DNA from: a virus
Length of the DNA stretch: 64,000 nt
IMG/VR virus record: IMGVR_UViG_3300022751_000016
Coordinates: 78,451-142,450 of that record
Strand: one strand, 5' to 3'
In this document: piece by piece, positions 1,929-31,895 of the stretch
Layout of the letters: each line of letters starts with the position of its first letter
Position numbering within the stretch: position 1 is the stretch's first letter
The notes under the pieces: model-generated
Seen by the model: the letters and a program-made list of their open reading frames with translations, nothing else
Databases searched by the model: none
Told to the model about the DNA's origin: nothing
Program-made: the position numbers and the translations under genes

Positions 1929-3274
1929 AATCAATACATTTTGTTACACCAACTTTACTTTCTCATTTGGATTTATTTTCTATGGGAGGTTCTGAAAAAG
2001 CTGAAGATACTAGTAAAATAGGAAGATACAATTCAGGACTATGTTATTCTATGGCATTATCTTTAAGGAATAATATAGACATGTCTGTACGAGTGTTTGA
2101 TACAGAATATGAGTCGGAAGGTCACGATAGAGCAAGGGAAACTTTATACACTATTGACACCTACACTGAAATTTGTGAACAAACAGATAAAGAAAAAGAA
2201 TTAATACAACTTAGTAAATCAGTTTCAAAACAATCTTTTTTCTCAGTTCACTGTGATGATTACGGTGGTGGAGATTTCCCAGAAGAGATTATTCCAACAG
2301 GATTCTCAGTTAAAATGGGAATAGGATGGGATTTGTGGATGGTCTTGAGAGAAATCTTCTCTAATATGATTGATGAGAATGGAAATTACTATGAAGACAC
2401 TTGTCCTGAAATTAAGTACGGAACAGTTTTTACATTAAGATTTGAAGATAGTTCAGAATTTGCAGAAATATGGAACAATCGTCATTTGTATATTAATGAA
2501 AAGCCACCTTTATACATCATTTCCGATACAGTTGAAGTATTAGAAAATGAAGAGGGATTTTTAAGAATTTACAAGCAAAACATATTAGTTTATAAAGATG
2601 AGAAAGTTCCAAGTAAGTTTGCGTATAATCTTAAATTCGGCGAAATAGACGAAAAAAGAATTTTATCTAATATTTGGAGTGTTTCCAGTGATATTGTATA
2701 TGCCATAAAAAATACAAAAAATGAAAATTACTTAAGAGAGATTATAACTGTTGATTTTGAAGATAAATTTCTTTCAGATAAAAGTGTCTATGGAACAGCT
2801 TCTGATTTAGCTCATAGCATAGCTTGTGAAATCTATAATAAATTCGGAGAAGTTAAAACATATCCTTGGTTGCTGAATTCTATTAAGGAAAGAAGTGATT
2901 GTGGAATTGGTGAGAAAAGAATCCAAAGCATAGGAGATAGTGTTTATAGTTATTCAAATACAGTAACTGTAACTTCTATTCCAGAGCCTTTTGCCGAACC
3001 ATCTATTGAAGTTGAGGGAGAAGTATTTATAGACCCTTTTTCCGCGGAAATAAAAAAACATTATAACTTTGAATTAGATGTAGAAGTTAGAAAAGCTAAA
3101 TTACGTGGGAATAAGGTTATAGCAGATAAGTTTGAAAAGTGTCTGATTGTAGACGAAAGTTTTGATGTAGAAAAATACTTTGGAGAGTTCATAATTCAAT
3201 ATTTAGATTTAACTGTTGAAGGAAATGTAATTAAGAATTTAGGAGAGTATATTTGTAATTTATTGAAGAAATGA
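1925..3274 (+). CDS. GHKL/HATPase_c-like ATPase domain protein with permuted motif order
   Basis: MGGSEK..IGRYNSGL (ATP-lid/G-box-like) precedes WMVLREIFSNMIDENG (N-box-like) and a GTVFTL strand. Confidence 0.6.
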   Translation: MKSIHFVTPTLLSHLDLFSMGGSEKAEDTSKIGRYNSGLCYSMALSLRNNIDMSVRVFDTEYESEGHDRARETLYTIDTYTEICEQTDKEKELIQLSKSVSKQSFFSVHCDDYGGGDFPEEIIPTGFSVKMGIGWDLWMVLREIFSNMIDENGNYYEDTCPEIKYGTVFTLRFEDSSEFAEIWNNRHLYINEKPPLYIISDTVEVLENEEGFLRIYKQNILVYKDEKVPSKFAYNLKFGEIDEKRILSNIWSVSSDIVYAIKNTKNENYLREIITVDFEDKFLSDKSVYGTASDLAHSIACEIYNKFGEVKTYPWLLNSIKERSDCGIGEKRIQSIGDSVYSYSNTVTVTSIPEPFAEPSIEVEGEVFIDPFSAEIKKHYNFELDVEVRKAKLRGNKVIADKFEKCLIVDESFDVEKYFGEFIIQYLDLTVEGNVIKNLGEYICNLLKK

Positions 3275-16306: not shown

Positions 16307-16335
16307 AAAGTTAAGAAAATCTTAAATGATTAGGA

Positions 16336-16361
16336 AGTGTAAAAATAAAGTTGTATATTAG
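16336..16361 (+). promoter_or_regulatory. variant promoter upstream of structured leader
   Basis: AGTGTAAAAATAAAGTTGTATATTAG with a -7-like TATATTAG; closely similar to 25110-25135. Confidence 0.55.
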
Positions 16362-16365
16362 CGTT

Positions 16366-16475
16366 TTAAATTTCTTGGCGGAGATTTTAATAGCAAAATT
16401 TTAAAATAAAAAACATAAATAAGAGACACCTGTATGATGCTACCGCCATAGCTGATTATAGGTGTTCTCGTTTAT
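16366..16475 (+). ncRNA. putative cis-regulatory kissing-loop RNA leader (copy 1)
   Basis: Hairpin 1 loop TGGCGG (16376-81) is the exact reverse complement of hairpin 2 loop CCGCCA (16443-48). Confidence 0.65.
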
Positions 16476-16484
16476 AAAAATAAA

Positions 16485-17528
16485 ATGGAAATAACAAACC
16501 AACAAAAACAAGTATTACTAAGCGGTCTTTTAGGAGATGGAAGTATTAAAAGGTCACATGTGTCTTACAACTGTATGTATGAAGAATATATGCAATTTAA
16601 AAGAAGTTTACTAGGAAATTTAGCCAAATCAGAGGTTATTGAATCGGATAATTTAGGTTACAAAAAAGGTTCTAAAATTTACACTTTTTCTGGTAAATTT
16701 AATTCATATGCAGATTCTCTAGTTAATAAAGATTTATCTGAAATGATTCAAGACTTAGATGAATTGGGACTGGCTCTCTGGGTTATGGATGATGGCTCAC
16801 TTCACAAGAAGAATTATTTCTACAATATCAACACACATTCGTTTCCAAAAGAAGTTCAGGAAAAAGTATTAATTCCCGCCTTAAATAAATTTGGAATATA
16901 TCCTAAAACAATGGTTGAAAATAAACCTGATGGAAGACAGTTTCATTATTTGTATATTTCAAAATGGAATGGTGCAATGATTATTTCTCGAATACTTAGA
17001 AACTATGCTGTAAATTGTTATAAATACAAACTCATACCTAAAGAAATTGAAGACGCTTACTTTAAACTAGATTTAGAAGTTTTCAATGCACTACCAACAG
17101 AGTATGCAAAAACAAGTTATTTATTAAAACAGAACGGAGTTCGACAAATGAGTGATTTACTAATGAATAATACAAAAGGTAAAGAGTACACTTACGAAGA
17201 ATTAGACGAGTTATGGAATAAAACTTTTCCAAAAACAGATTGTGTCTTTTCTATATATGATTTTAAGAAAACAAAAGAAGGTGAGGATGAAAATGTCTTA
17301 ATACCACAAGTTAATTTTTTAGATGAAAATCCTATTGTTAAGGGGTCTTTTAAATTGTCTTTTAACACTTGGAAATATGGTGAAACTTTTTATTCTATCG
17401 AGGGAAGGTCACTTACTTGGAAAACGCTTCTAGATATTATAGATAAACATGGAGATGGACATCACATATTTTTAGAATTAATTGAAATTAAGAATAACAA
17501 CGAAGTGTTTGTATTTTTAGGCAGTTAG
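16485..17528 (+). mobile_element. free-standing LAGLIDADG homing endonuclease with C-terminal extension
   Basis: LLSGLLGDGSI and LALWVMDDGSL motifs; lies directly downstream of polA. Confidence 0.85.
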
Positions 17529-17534
17529 TATAAA

Positions 17535-17559
17535 GAGTCCTCTTAACCGAGGATTTTTT
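17535..17559 (+). terminator. intrinsic terminator
   Basis: GAGTCCTC-TTAACC-GAGGATTT stem-loop followed by a T-run. Confidence 0.8.
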
Positions 17560-17583
17560 ATTTTTAAAATAATCACCCAATTC

Positions 17584-17615
17584 TTTGTTTATATCATATG
17601 TATTGCTTATCTTTG
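17584..17615 (+). promoter_or_regulatory. Bacteroidota sigma70 promoter
   Basis: TTTG-N20-TATCTTTG. Confidence 0.85.
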
Positions 17616-17659
17616 CAGTGTAAATCACTGTTTTTTAACCCTTTTACCGCGAAATTAAT

Positions 17660-25109: not shown

Positions 25110-25135
25110 AGTGTGAAGATAGTGTTGTATATTGC
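25110..25135 (+). promoter_or_regulatory. variant promoter upstream of structured leader
   Basis: AGTGTGAAGATAGTGTTGTATATTGC, with TTTG at 25105-08; closely similar to 16336-16361. Confidence 0.55.
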
Positions 25136-25140
25136 ACTTG

Positions 25141-25244
25141 TTAATTTCTTGCTGCGAACACTAAATTAATTTATAAAGTATTATTTTTTTTGAGAAGCTT
25201 CTTTCATTAACTATTCGCAGTAGTTTTTGTTAGAAGTTTTCTTA
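25141..25244 (+). ncRNA. putative cis-regulatory kissing-loop RNA leader (copy 2)
   Basis: Hairpin 1 loop CTGCGAA (25152-58) is the exact reverse complement of hairpin 2 loop TTCGCAG (25214-20). Confidence 0.65.
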
Positions 25245-25257
25245 TTTTTAAATAGTT

Positions 25258-25383
25258 ATGTGTCAAACAAAAGTATGTACAAAATGTGGGATAGATAAAT
25301 CCACCTCAGAATTCAGTTACCATAATACAGCTAAGGATAACTTATATAAAAAATGTATCTACTTTATAAACAATGAGGACTGA
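25258..25383 (+). pseudogene. truncated zinc-finger N-terminus of an HNH/EndoVII-type homing endonuclease
   Basis: MCQTKVCTKCGIDKSTSEFSYHNTAKDNLYKKC, then the expected second CxxC is lost and a stop follows at 41 aa. Confidence 0.55.
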
Positions 25384-28808: not shown

Positions 28809-29100
28809 TGTTGTATATTTCGTTAGCTTTTTCTATTGCGGCATTTATAGCATTAATTCTATTTTCTTGAAATTGACTACATTCAGTTCTAACATCATTT
28901 TGTAAAATATAGGAATCAAATGTTTCATCAATACATATTAAAACTCCTATGTAAATCCCAACTGAATCAAAGAAATCAATTATTAAAGCATTTTTACAAG
29001 TATCTGATAAACTATGGTAATTTTTATACTCTTCTATTGGCGTATTTCTTTCAAAGAACCACATTCCAAAATCTTCATTACATTTACCTGTCAATTTCAT
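28774..29100 (-). CDS. hypothetical protein
   Basis: 108 aa, FFDSVGIYI..AIEKANEIYN. Confidence 0.7.
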   Translation of the reverse strand: MKLTGKCNEDFGMWFFERNTPIEEYKNYHSLSDTCKNALIIDFFDSVGIYIGVLICIDETFDSYILQNDVRTECSQFQENRINAINAAIEKANEIYNNDNMLHGSQTK

Positions 29101-29119
29101 ATATTAAGTTTTTATCCCA

Positions 29120-29151
29120 CAAATATAATGAAAAAATTCCCAAATGACAAG
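29120..29151 (-). promoter_or_regulatory. Bacteroidota sigma70 promoter overlapping a terminator
   Basis: Minus strand CTTG-N20-TATATTTG. Confidence 0.65.
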
Positions 29152-29164
29152 ACAAATGGGAATT
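29131..29164 (-). terminator. intrinsic terminator after the PRS-like gene
   Basis: Minus strand AATTCCCA..TGGGAATT followed by a T-run; similar in sequence to the terminator at 6907. Confidence 0.6.
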
Positions 29165-29169
29165 AATTT

Positions 29170-29985
29170 TTAAAATAATTTTATAACTTCTAAATTCTCT
29201 GCTTTTGAAGCTCCTCCACCATCTTTATGAAGAATTGGGAAATACTCTTCATATTTAGAATTAGTAGTAAATACTTTATCGAATAAAGTGAATAATTCAG
29301 GATTAGGATTAGGTACTGTTAAATGACTCACTGCTAAATATAATTTTCCAATATTTCTTTCTCTAAGCATTTTTGCCAGTCCTACGAATGTTCCTCCATA
29401 AACTGAAATGTCATCAATAATTAAAATATCTTTACCTTCAAAATCTTGTCTGTCAATTACTTGGACTAACTTGGATTTTCCTTCTTCATATTTTCTACTT
29501 TTTGATGCTCCATAAACTTCTCCTCTCCATTTCAGTTTATCCGCTAATTTCATGAGAGGTTTAAAACCTCCTGCATCACTAGAAAATAATACTGTATCTT
29601 GTGTAAAAGTTTCAGTTCTTATTTGCTTGAAAACTTCTTGTATAAACTCACTATTATCTATAATCTCTACATTATCCATCAAAGCTTCTACAACTTCTCC
29701 ATTATGAGGATGAAAAATCTTAAAGTTAGCTTCTAGATTGTTTAAAAATTTCAACACTAACTTCAAACCGCTAGACTCTCCTTTATTAAATCTTCTATCT
29801 GCCTGTGCATCAATTAAATTAGGAATGATGATGTTCGGTCTGATTCCGTTATGTTCACTACGAAAGGCATCAACAAATTGATTTAAGTGCCACAGGTCTT
29901 CATAACTGTTTATTCTAAAAACTTGTTCACCTAATTTCGTACTATTAATACAACTTGTTCCGTCTGGGTATTTATTTAAGTGCAT
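29170..29985 (-). CDS. ribose-phosphate pyrophosphokinase-like protein (PRS or ADPR-PP synthetase, Adps-like)
   Basis: YPDG, QADRR, HPH, SSDAGG, IIDDISVYGGTF PRT loop, VSH and FTTNS motifs. Confidence 0.9.
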   Translation of the reverse strand: MHLNKYPDGTSCINSTKLGEQVFRINSYEDLWHLNQFVDAFRSEHNGIRPNIIIPNLIDAQADRRFNKGESSGLKLVLKFLNNLEANFKIFHPHNGEVVEALMDNVEIIDNSEFIQEVFKQIRTETFTQDTVLFSSDAGGFKPLMKLADKLKWRGEVYGASKSRKYEEGKSKLVQVIDRQDFEGKDILIIDDISVYGGTFVGLAKMLRERNIGKLYLAVSHLTVPNPNPELFTLFDKVFTTNSKYEEYFPILHKDGGGASKAENLEVIKLF

Positions 29986-30436: not shown

Positions 30437-31155
30437 AACTCTATTTTTCTTATTACTTTACTTGTATCTTGTTTTATCACTAAATGTTGAAATCTGTCAT
30501 AGAATTTAGAATCTTCTGCCCTATATTCATAAATAAACCAACCGTGTTTTTGTAACTCTTTTATATCTTCCTTAGTAAACCACTGATATAAATCTTCTAA
30601 TGTCGGAACTGCCGATAACCACCCTACTAACTCTTGGTCAAAATCCATTTTAAGCTCCGCATTAGCACAAAAATTAAACCTATCGTGAATTAATCCTGTA
30701 AAATTTCCATCAAATTGATACCATAAACCCTGCTTAGTTTCTTCATTACAAACTCTGTAAAATGTATTTTTCTTTACTTCTGAAACTAGTTTTGTTAAAG
30801 TGTAATACGTTTCTCGAATCGAACTCCTGTCATCAATGTATATATTCGCGTATAACTTTCTATTTCCTCTAACACCGTAAGGAGCATCTTCATTTATTGA
30901 ATGATAGGGTATATTATTTTCCGCCAAAAAAGATTTAATAAAAACTGTATCTTGATTGCCTGTCCACATAATAATGTAGCAACCAATATCATATAAATCT
31001 CTTACTAGTTGTCTAACCATTTCATACGATTCTCCTGTTCCATGAAAGTCGAAAACAGTGTCGTCTACATCGACTGCGACGATTAAGCTTCCGTATTTAT
31101 TGTATTCCGCCCAGAGTCTTTCATAGGCTGAATTTTCTTTTAAATATTTATCCAT
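30433..31155 (-). CDS. HAD-superfamily phosphatase-like domain fused to an uncharacterised C-terminal domain
   Basis: AVDVDDT, WTG, K..A.IYIDDR; a second domain begins at TFYRV. Confidence 0.75.
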   Translation of the reverse strand: MDKYLKENSAYERLWAEYNKYGSLIVAVDVDDTVFDFHGTGESYEMVRQLVRDLYDIGCYIIMWTGNQDTVFIKSFLAENNIPYHSINEDAPYGVRGNRKLYANIYIDDRSSIRETYYTLTKLVSEVKKNTFYRVCNEETKQGLWYQFDGNFTGLIHDRFNFCANAELKMDFDQELVGWLSAVPTLEDLYQWFTKEDIKELQKHGWFIYEYRAEDSKFYDRFQHLVIKQDTSKVIRKIEL

Positions 31156-31895
31156 TAGTCTGTGATTTCTATTTTATAGTTATACATTGCGTGATGACAT
31201 TCTATGGAAATTAAAGTTTTCCACTCGTCCGCTACTTCTTTTATATACTTTTCTTTTGCTGTTTTATAAGCTTGAAATGCCTCCTCTGGGGTGTTAAAAC
31301 GTCCTAAATCTACATATTCTTCTTTCTTATGAAACCTCGCTTTGTATTTTTTATCTGCCTTAGTAACTCCAATTGGGTATTTTCCTCGAACCTTGTTACT
31401 TTTTACAAACAAAGAGTTTATTTCGTGAGGTACAAAGCAACATGTTTCCTGAGAATAAAAAATATTCCCTTTGACAAAAATGTCTTTATCTAATTCCCAT
31501 CCTTGCATATAAGGTTTCCAATTATCTTCATACCACTTAGCAAAATTCTGAAAACATTTCCAGTCTTCAATAACAAAACAATTTTTATAAGTTTGGTAAT
31601 TTTTCTGATACTTGTCACTATAACTCCTTTGTAATATGCCAGCCCACTTTTTGTATATTTCAGGATGTGTTTTGTTTGTATATTTACCAACCCCTAAATA
31701 ACCAACTCCGTACACAGAAGGATGATTGGGATTTTTTACAACTCCCTCTTTAATGTGCCCATATTGAATATTTTTTAATATTACTCCATCTTCAAATTGT
31801 ACAGCACAGTTGTTGCATCCAAAGTATTCAATGATTTCCATTTTGAGACCTTGCTTGTTAATATACACCTTTCCTACTTTGTTGTTATATCTCAT
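31155..31895 (-). mobile_element. HNH-type homing endonuclease with AP2-like C-terminal domain
   Basis: YKKWAGILQR, W..FQNFAKW, LDKDI..YS..C.FVP..IN, PIGV and LGRFNTPEEAFQAY motifs. Confidence 0.8.

Follow-up and report, generated by a model that had tools for sequence, protein, structure and literature searches.

Leader organization at the LAGLIDADG locus

The window analyzed here is a 64,000-nucleotide (nt) stretch of the virus record IMGVR_UViG_3300022751_000016, namely the final 64 kb of this 142,450-base-pair (bp) record (genome G000), 30.8% G+C, and the element under study is a structured leader RNA which lies immediately upstream of a LAGLIDADG homing-endonuclease gene. An earlier note on this DNA had described, in order, a promoter-like box, a hairpin P1 with the loop TGGCGG, an A-rich linker, a long hairpin P2 with the loop CCGCCA, and some 15 nt leading up to the ATG. 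All of these parts were found where they had been placed, with a gap of exactly 15 nt between P2 and the ATG at 16485, and the leader RNA which they make up is approximately 125 bases long (Table 1, copy 1).

The 23-nt block of the promoter-like box of copy 1 is identical at 17 of 23 bases to positions 25111-25133 of a second copy, and a degenerate pattern of this box gave exactly two matches in the window against 0.01 expected. The -33 position of copy 1 is poor (TAGG). Its -7 element ends 4 nt 5' of P1, and P1 is predicted to stand at or near the 5' end of the transcript, provided that the -7 box is used. With respect to P1 itself, a hairpin was present but was weaker than the earlier note had implied, consisting of 3 bp, a 2x1 internal loop and then 5 A-U pairs; an unconstrained minimum free energy fold pulls two of its loop bases into the stem. 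The 6-nt loops of P1 and P2 are exactly complementary to each other, and a pair of fully complementary 6-nt loops is also the geometry of the TAR/TAR* and RNA I/RNA II kissing complexes. When folded with RNAfold without constraint, both hairpins were predicted in both window copies (z = -2.8 and -2.9 versus dinucleotide shuffles), and the antisense strand of each copy folded worse. The tail of copy 1 was near-identical in the related loci L122, L002 and L004.

The second copy at 25.1 kb was likewise confirmed, with loops which differ from those of copy 1 and are again complementary to each other (Table 1). The earlier note knew of these two copies only; the genome G000 holds five, all on the + strand and all directly 3' of promoter boxes. 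The short open reading frame (ORF) behind copy 2, which encodes 41 amino acids (aa), has a weak likeness to the N-terminus, or zinc-finger start, of HNH/EndoVII endonucleases (phrog_2255, E = 5e-4) and is probably an endonuclease remnant.

Table 1. Leaders, the genes behind them and adjoining features. Coordinates without a genome or locus name are those of the window; positions in kb are those of the genome or locus named.
Feature	Position	Strand	Loops (P1/P2)	Details
Copy 1, whole leader	16337-16484	+	TGGCGG/CCGCCA	promoter to last base before ATG
Copy 1, promoter-like box	16337-16361	+		23-nt block 16337-16359; -7-type TATATTAG 16354-16361
Copy 1, P1	16366-16390	+		5' arm 16366-16375, 6-nt loop TGGCGG 16376-16381, 3' arm 16382-16390
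Copy 1, linker	16391-16422	+		32 nt, A-rich, mostly unpaired
Copy 1, P2	16423-16469	+		long imperfect hairpin; 5' arm 16423-16442, loop CCGCCA 16443-16448, 3' arm 16449-16469
Copy 1, tail	16470-16484	+		GTTTATAAAAATAAA; short T run, then A-rich tract up to ATG
LAGLIDADG homing-endonuclease gene	16485-17528	+		347 aa
Hairpin and T run closing the endonuclease cassette	17536-17565	+		
Next promoter	17608-17620	+		-7 box TATCTTTG (17608-17615) and start region TTTGCAGTGTA
Copy 2, whole leader	25111-25257	+	CTGCGAA/TTCGCAG	same part order as copy 1
Copy 2, promoter-like box	25111-25135	+		box 25111-25133; -7-type TATATTGC 25128-25135; TTTG 19 nt upstream of -7
Copy 2, P1	25138-25172	+		loop CTGCGAA 25152-25158
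Copy 2, P2	25192-25243	+		7-nt loop TTCGCAG 25214-25220, then ATTTTTAAAT
Copy 2, downstream ORF	25258-25383	+		41 aa, CxxC finger, ATG 25258
G000 leader	28.9 kb	+	GTGGAAAG/CTTTCCAC	then 300-aa gene without assigned function
G000 leader	49.7 kb	+	GTACGAAC/GTTCGTAC	then HNH endonuclease (phrog_374, E = 1e-48)
G000 leader	74.9 kb	+	CTCTCACC/GGTGAGAG	no ORF behind; ~700 nt non-coding
L004/G004 leader	after polA		ACGCAAC/GTTGCGT	LAGLIDADG, 51% identical to window gene
L002/G002 leader	after polA		GTGCGAG/CTCGCAC	HNH, phrog_953
L112 leader			GTGCGAG/CTCGCAC	GIY-YIG
L122 leader			GTGCGAG/CTCGCAC	LAGLIDADG, 347 aa
L116 leader			AGCATCCTA/TAGGATGCT	DUF723/T5orf172
L118 leader			TTTCCGAGA/TCTCGGAAA	RNA ligase
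G002 leader	55.8 kb		GGTAGGAT/ATCCTACC	NUMOD4 + HNH_3
G004 leader	130.4 kb		CCACCAC/GTGGTGG	homologue of 300-aa gene
L121 leader	4.7 kb		CCTTCAC/GTGAAGG	homologue of 300-aa gene, judged by N-terminal NINS.LY motif
L121 leader	18.7 kb		TTCGGACG/CGTCCGAA	305-aa protein without assigned function

Complementarity and covariation of the two loops

Both strands were scanned for two local hairpins having reverse-complementary loop words of at least 6 nt, with at least 3 G/C, and lying 25-90 nt apart. An earlier, permissive scan had returned hundreds of A/T-only matches and was discarded. In sixteen block-wise dinucleotide shuffles there were on average 4.5 loci per strand, with 0.19 having loop words of at least 7 nt and none having words of at least 8 nt. 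The real + strand gave nine loci, five of them with at least 7 nt, and four of these five were leader copies located directly behind promoter boxes. Loop-pair candidates in G000 at 22.5, 36.4, 84.3, 113.2 and 121.3 kb were rejected, as they had no leader-type promoter box and their number was that of the shuffle background. The 6-nt pair of copy 1 was missed by the scan solely through the stem-counting rule; this match is not significant alone, and copy 1 was counted in the family because its promoter and tail are homologous to those of other members.

In each of the 12 tabulated leaders the cognate loops paired without mismatch over 6-9 nt, compared with 2.3 nt on average and 5 nt at most for the 130 non-cognate combinations. 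Within G000 the five leaders were mutually orthogonal, the longest cross-match being 4 nt. Covariation was analyzed on a MAFFT alignment. For the five core members, the kissing helix formed by the two loops was 94% paired and six of its seven pairs were changed on both sides; its score was reached by none of 500 shuffles, and slid registers paired at 35-53%. When seven members were aligned the kissing helix was 90% paired and P2 was 77-79% paired, with 10 of 15 P2 pairs doubly changed. MAFFT misplaces the P1 3' arm and misaligns the long-form copies, such that the seven-member counts for P1 understate its pairing. RNAalifold selected the loop-loop helix unprompted.

The leaders of the orthologous LAGLIDADG genes in the window, L004 and L122 each carry a different pair of complementary loops (Table 1). 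Between the window and L122, the promoter and the tail CGTTTATAAAA(A)TAAAATGGAAATA were near letter-identical and all stems and both loops differed, with the fold being kept. As the earlier note had proposed, a covariance model was built and used for a homologue search. This model (R1) was made from five members with P1, P2 and sequence only, and is blind to loop pairing. It nevertheless retrieved four leaders on which it had not been trained, L122 (E = 9e-13), L112 (6e-4), L091 (0.04) and L118 (0.08), and all four had perfect loop pairs, providing further homologues with covarying loops. R1 missed the long-form copies at 28.9 and 74.9 kb of G000 and therefore underestimates the family. Marginal R1 matches were obtained at L116 21883-22008 and at 2578-2720 (-) of the window, the latter being set aside as it had no obvious hairpin pair.

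In 12 of 12 leaders the sense strand had the more stable fold, the mean difference from the antisense strand being 8.6 kcal/mol. P1 and P2 with free loops were predicted at -19 to -42 kcal/mol, to which the loop duplex would add -8.6 to -12.7 kcal/mol. A nested long-range helix in place of the kissing contact was rejected, since it costs most of P1 and P2 and reaches only -14 to -24 kcal/mol in 10 of 12 leaders, as was an extension of the complementarity into the stems in the manner of a zipper or antiterminator, since in those copies which were inspected the pairing did not reach beyond the loops. The earlier note had offered a switch or an RNA cofactor as possible roles; a mutually exclusive alternative fold was looked for and none was found, and nothing speaks for a cofactor. 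A ribozyme or riboswitch is unlikely given that no conserved nucleotides occur in the loops or the linker core. The leader is a real, selected RNA structure, and the structured 5' leader RNA of the earlier note is borne out by loop pairing which has been kept through compensatory change among paralogues and orthologues alike.

With respect to known RNA families, Rfam 15 at gathering thresholds produced no match over the whole window, in line with the earlier note, which could name no family, and at E values up to 10 the two window copies produced only chance-level matches of 13-19 bits versus thresholds of 44-80. The literature searched contained no kissing-loop leader of endonuclease genes, nor one in Bacteroidota or crAss-like phages, and a survey which lists 10,006 candidate structured RNAs from viruses has no mention of the motif in its main text. 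The leader family is uncatalogued; its general kind, a cis-acting leader or attenuator, is known, and the loop-loop contact which defines it is unusual.

Shared anatomy of the leaders

Both window copies and 13 further loci share the same layout, in which the loops of P1 and P2 can pair with each other over 6 nt or more. The figures given here come mostly from the 12 tabulated leaders. The common order is promoter, P1, an A-rich linker of approximately 22-35 nt, P2, a T-rich run and the start codon. The two loops measure 6-9 nt and lie 47-64 nt apart, and in several members the P2 loop consists exactly of the complementary word. In 8 of 12 leaders the P1 loop follows the -7 box by 10-16 nt, which would make P1 the extreme 5' part of the RNA; in leaders of the 300-aa-gene type and in the 74.9 kb copy this distance is 29-53 nt. 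A semi-conserved A-rich motif, WRAAAG(Y)ATTTAAAA, stands right after P1 in 8 of 12 leaders (window 16391-16410 and 25173-25190, and the linkers of relatives) and may be a protein-binding or cleavage site.

P2 is an imperfect hairpin of 17-22 bp, and at least 4 T occur within the 8 nt after every P2. Six of these hairpins (G000 74.9 kb, G004 130 kb, G002 55.8 kb, L116, L118 and L121) are G+C-rich at the base and run into 5-9 T, both canonical features of an intrinsic terminator. P2 is separated from the start codon by 9-20 nt, and the A-rich tract in which this codon stands is unpaired in the predicted folds; in 14 of 15 leaders a start codon is present at such a near-constant short distance 3' of P2.

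Intergenic sites across the genome bear TTTG-N19/20-TATATTTG (TAnnTTTG type). TTTG-N19-TAnnTTTG is the housekeeping-promoter consensus of Bacteroidota, and the leader boxes are of the same type. A box of approximately 24 nt, GTTACA(C)AGAAAA(A)TAACCAATTTG, was seen adjoining the -33 TTTG of several promoters, including three leader promoters, at 49.65 kb, 74.86 kb and about 486 (-) in G000 and at 130.45 kb (-) in G004; this may be an operator or an upstream promoter element.

Leaders in related phages and their downstream genes

Relatives identified through polA comprised four IMG/VR contigs (57-63% polA identity) and many more from a large protein collection, of which 11 loci were fetched. Searching 50,697 phage records with polA and the endonuclease gene by blastn gave no near relative, and tblastn reached at most 38% identity. 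In IMG/VR, an exact promoter-plus-P1-arm pattern had 0 matches, and the LAGLIDADG protein, used alone or as a two-sequence alignment, found only the contig of L004 itself; the outcome with the 300-aa protein was likewise. In total 15 leaders were collected, five in G000 and ten in the relatives G004, G002, L112, L116, L118, L121 and L122.

The genes downstream of these 15 leaders were tabulated (Table 1), as had been suggested in the earlier note, and the link to homing endonucleases proved strong but not exclusive. Nine of the 15 precede homing-endonuclease genes or a remnant of one, with LAGLIDADG, three HNH types, GIY-YIG and T5orf172 represented. Three genomes share the leader type GTGCGAG/CTCGCAC, with an HNH gene behind it in one, a GIY-YIG gene in another and a LAGLIDADG gene in the third, and the LAGLIDADG gene was found behind three different loop pairs (window, L004 and L122). 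Judged from these arrangements, leader and endonuclease ORF assort independently, and the presence of one leader type before three endonuclease families marks the leader as a portable regulatory module.

A conserved protein of 277-300 aa with the start motif ..N(I)NS.LY..LFS is encoded at G000 29041-29943, L098 10576-11466 (-) and L121 4864-5697, always behind a long-form kissing leader. A profile search of PDB sequences with the 300-aa protein gave nothing, PHROG gave no convincing match and Pfam only a weak one to DUF6945. Upstream of the window, at 74.9-75.7 kb of G000 (approximately 3.4 to 2.7 kb before the window start), the 74.9 kb leader ends in ATGGATTC, resembling the start of the 300-aa gene at 29.0 kb, and the non-coding stretch of approximately 700 nt which follows is rich in hairpins. 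A further two-hairpin candidate with near-palindromic 8-nt loops (GTAGCTGC/GCAGCTAC) was observed at 33.76-33.85 kb of G004; it has no clear promoter and its strand is ambiguous.

The endonuclease cassette and the site after polA

The endonuclease cassette of the window is self-contained, having its own promoter, the leader, the LAGLIDADG gene and a terminator hairpin, after which a second promoter follows (Table 1). The start region TTTGCAGTGTA of this second promoter matches the promoter found directly 3' of polA in the endonuclease-free relative L001, and the stretch from promoter to terminator thus behaves as one insertion. The LAGLIDADG protein is 51% identical over 212 aa to that of L004, whose gene stands behind the orthologous leader. 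The 347-aa ORF of the window is approximately 135 aa longer than its 235-aa L004 homologue (window 17121-17525, +), and Pfam gave no match in the extra part; forms of 346-347 aa are also encoded by L121 and L122.

The site directly after polA (window 16307-17620; L001-L004 and L112-L123) is a hotspot of mobile genes in this phage group. Its occupants vary and include LAGLIDADG, HNH, GIY-YIG or DUF723/T5orf172 genes, an RNA-ligase/PNKP pair, or nothing, and further 3' of the site there are small ORFs which are hypervariable. Among the relatives, one has a gene for a crAss_MUZ-domain protein and another a gene for an RVT_1 reverse transcriptase approximately 9 kb upstream of polA (L119 13608-14198; L116 769-1701). 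The occurrence of the crAss_MUZ Pfam family in a relative indicates that the lineage is crAss-like, and the group consists of marine, AT-rich phages which presumably infect Flavobacteriia.

Proposed function and alternative explanations

Our preferred reading, which we hold with moderate confidence, is that these RNAs constitute an uncatalogued family of cis-acting 5' leaders of the attenuator type in crAss-like phages. A host-type promoter would start the transcript with P1 as its first element, and P1 and P2 would dock through the loop-loop kissing helix. P2 would then act as a promoter-proximal intrinsic terminator or attenuator which ends a portion of the transcripts ahead of the gene, and this state would be stabilized or tuned by P1 docked on the P2 apex. 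A set fraction of transcripts, or those made at a certain time, would continue into the downstream gene, in most cases a potentially harmful homing endonuclease borne in a promoter-leader-gene-terminator cassette. As each locus has its own loop sequence, leaders within one cell should not cross-pair, and a need to avoid such cross-pairing is what the private loop codes fit best. The attenuator reading agrees with the terminator features, with the fixed place of the leader 3' of the promoter and 5' of the start codon, and with a requirement for nuclease expression to be kept low.

A number of observations weigh against it. A consensus terminator scan flagged neither of the window P2 hairpins, whose tails (GTTTATAA and ATTTTTAA) have short T runs (GTTTAT and ATTTTT), and these two hairpins are plausible but weak as terminators. 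The complementarity touches only the P2 loop and not its stem, which leaves no obvious way to make or break a terminator, and a competing antiterminator fold was looked for without one being found. A search of 76 more distant polA loci (L005-L080) with R1 gave no match, and the known relatives form a narrow phage group. The earlier note had the leader travelling with selfish endonucleases, which is so for the nine leaders described above and fails for the other six of 15, which precede non-endonuclease genes (the 277-300-aa gene, an RNA ligase and the 305-aa protein) or no ORF. Conversely, there are endonuclease genes without a leader, namely those of L113-L115, the LAGLIDADG gene of L121, which starts 10 nt after polA with no leader between, and a second phrog_374-type HNH gene of the window (31155-31895, -), which overlaps its neighbors in an NAD-salvage operon and has no promoter or leader of its own. 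Endonuclease dosing therefore cannot be the sole role of the leader. It is a general regulatory module of the phage lineage, very often with mobile nuclease genes behind it, and is not endonuclease-specific.

Two other functions of the same RNA were weighed. The leader could control mRNA stability or translation, with a 5' hairpin docked on P2 which blocks decay dependent on the 5' end, or which shapes an A-rich landing region for the ribosome. Bacteroidota initiate translation on unstructured A-rich leaders, with no Shine-Dalgarno pairing, and the conserved A-rich tail ahead of the AUG would suit this, as would the weak T runs of the window P2 hairpins and the position of P1, which in 8 of 12 leaders begins a few nt from the predicted start with its loop 10-16 nt after the -7 box. 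However, the start codon and its tract are unsequestered in any predicted fold, and the full terminator features of many P2 hairpins would be superfluous in a stability element. We regard this explanation as rather unlikely. Slightly less likely again is that the functional product is a terminated small RNA of approximately 105-120 nt, its hairpins locked by the kissing helix and nuclease-resistant, which may act in trans on its own nascent leaders or as a decoy, with the genes being expressed via read-through. The 74.9 kb copy, which has no ORF behind its promoter, P1, P2 and canonical terminator, is what such an RNA would look like, several further P2 hairpins are canonical terminators, and loop codes which are orthogonal within one genome would be expected if RNA cross-talk matters. 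Yet the loops pair within one molecule and would occupy any seed, no conserved single-stranded sequence is present for a common target, and the near-fixed distance from P2 to the start codon in 14 of 15 leaders suits a leader.

The kissing fold might also be the target of a protein which reads shape, such as a phage antiterminator or an RNase III-type enzyme, and which releases or processes the leader at a set time of infection. Rom reads the ColE1 kissing complex by shape in this way. Free loop sequences combined with constant geometry (loops of 6-9 nt, 47-64 nt apart), a possible stacking of P1, kissing helix and P2 into a rod of approximately 35 bp, and the semi-conserved linker motif would all be consistent with such recognition; no candidate protein was identified, and the proposal, which we consider improbable in its own right, refines the attenuator explanation instead of excluding it. 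An element acting as DNA, whether a cruciform, an operator or a recognition or recombination site of the endonuclease, or else a chance inverted repeat, is the least probable of these explanations by far. Inverted repeats are strand-symmetric and DNA hairpins are formally possible, and the leaders are located at endonuclease insertion sites. The better folding of the sense strand in every leader through G-U pairs, together with the orientation of all copies with transcription and directly behind promoters, makes a DNA element very unlikely; moreover the loop sequences differ between copies, so that they offer no common protein site, and the shuffles exclude chance.

Returning to the attenuator reading, we propose tentatively, and with some doubt, that the loop-loop contact is itself the working part of a new attenuation mechanism, in which a 5' hairpin docks on the apex of a promoter-proximal terminator and carries a private sequence address for each locus. 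The contact might be read by a structure-specific phage factor, or terminated leaders, once accumulated, might work in trans and affect only those nascent leaders which come from their own locus. If true, several orthogonal, self-addressed expression gates could operate in one phage-infected cell, and mobile endonuclease genes would carry their gate with them as a portable module.

Significance and comparison with known systems

Homing endonucleases need expression sufficient to spread and yet not enough to harm their carrier, and to our knowledge the control of free-standing homing endonucleases has been described for only a few T-even phage genes. The leader is compact and portable, displays unusually clean natural covariation, and is common to four unrelated endonuclease families and some ordinary phage genes. 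Should the kissing contact govern termination or read-through, it would represent a new attenuator design and provide a naturally occurring collection of RNA parts that do not cross-react.

The closest biological counterpart is found in the T-even phages, where endonuclease genes (I-TevI, I-TevII, I-TevIII, segB and Aeh1 mobE) have hairpins which hide the ribosome-binding site and contain an embedded late promoter, and where approximately 30% of transcripts end at a terminator inside T4 mobE (PMC2988022). Those genes are kept under tight control by hairpins just upstream, their own promoters and weak intrinsic terminators, an arrangement which the present leaders would resemble. There is no sequence relationship, and the defining feature here is a covarying loop-loop contact. 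Unlike the T-even hairpins, which sequester the ribosome-binding site, those described here leave the AUG and A-rich tract outside P2; hosts without Shine-Dalgarno-based control would make the T4 solution of a hidden ribosome-binding site unavailable to this phage lineage. In addition, the sole promoter-like box lies upstream of P1, whereas the T-even promoter, late or middle, is embedded in the hairpin and its late transcripts lack the 5' half; TAAATTTC and TAATTTCT, within the 5' arm of P1, are poorer likenesses of a -7 element.

Kissing between fully complementary 6-8-nt loops also occurs in ColE1 RNA I/RNA II (with Rom), pT181 and pIP501, and in pT181 and pIP501 this contact decides whether a leader terminator forms. 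Those contacts are intermolecular and involve an RNA from the opposite strand, whereas here a single leader bears both loops, on the same strand, and the contact is confined to the loop of the terminator-like hairpin. The pLS20 cATT zipper attenuator has a weak upstream hairpin, a long imperfect hairpin and a terminator, with long-range pairing deciding read-through (PMC13401043). Its upstream element pairs with the terminator stem to give an antiterminator, whereas the pairing described here is limited to the apical loops and is compatible with both hairpins. The guanidine-II (mini-ykkC) riboswitch resembles the present leader in having two tandem 5'-leader hairpins, a variable linker and loop-loop docking, but differs in its conserved ACGR tetraloops and its ligand; here the loops are variable, 6-9 nt long and fully Watson-Crick paired, with no Rfam match. 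In the put RNA of phage HK022, two hairpins of conserved sequence and structure directly behind phage promoters act in cis on the polymerase to suppress downstream terminators. This arrangement is without loop-loop pairing, whereas in the leader family described here the second hairpin is itself terminator-like.

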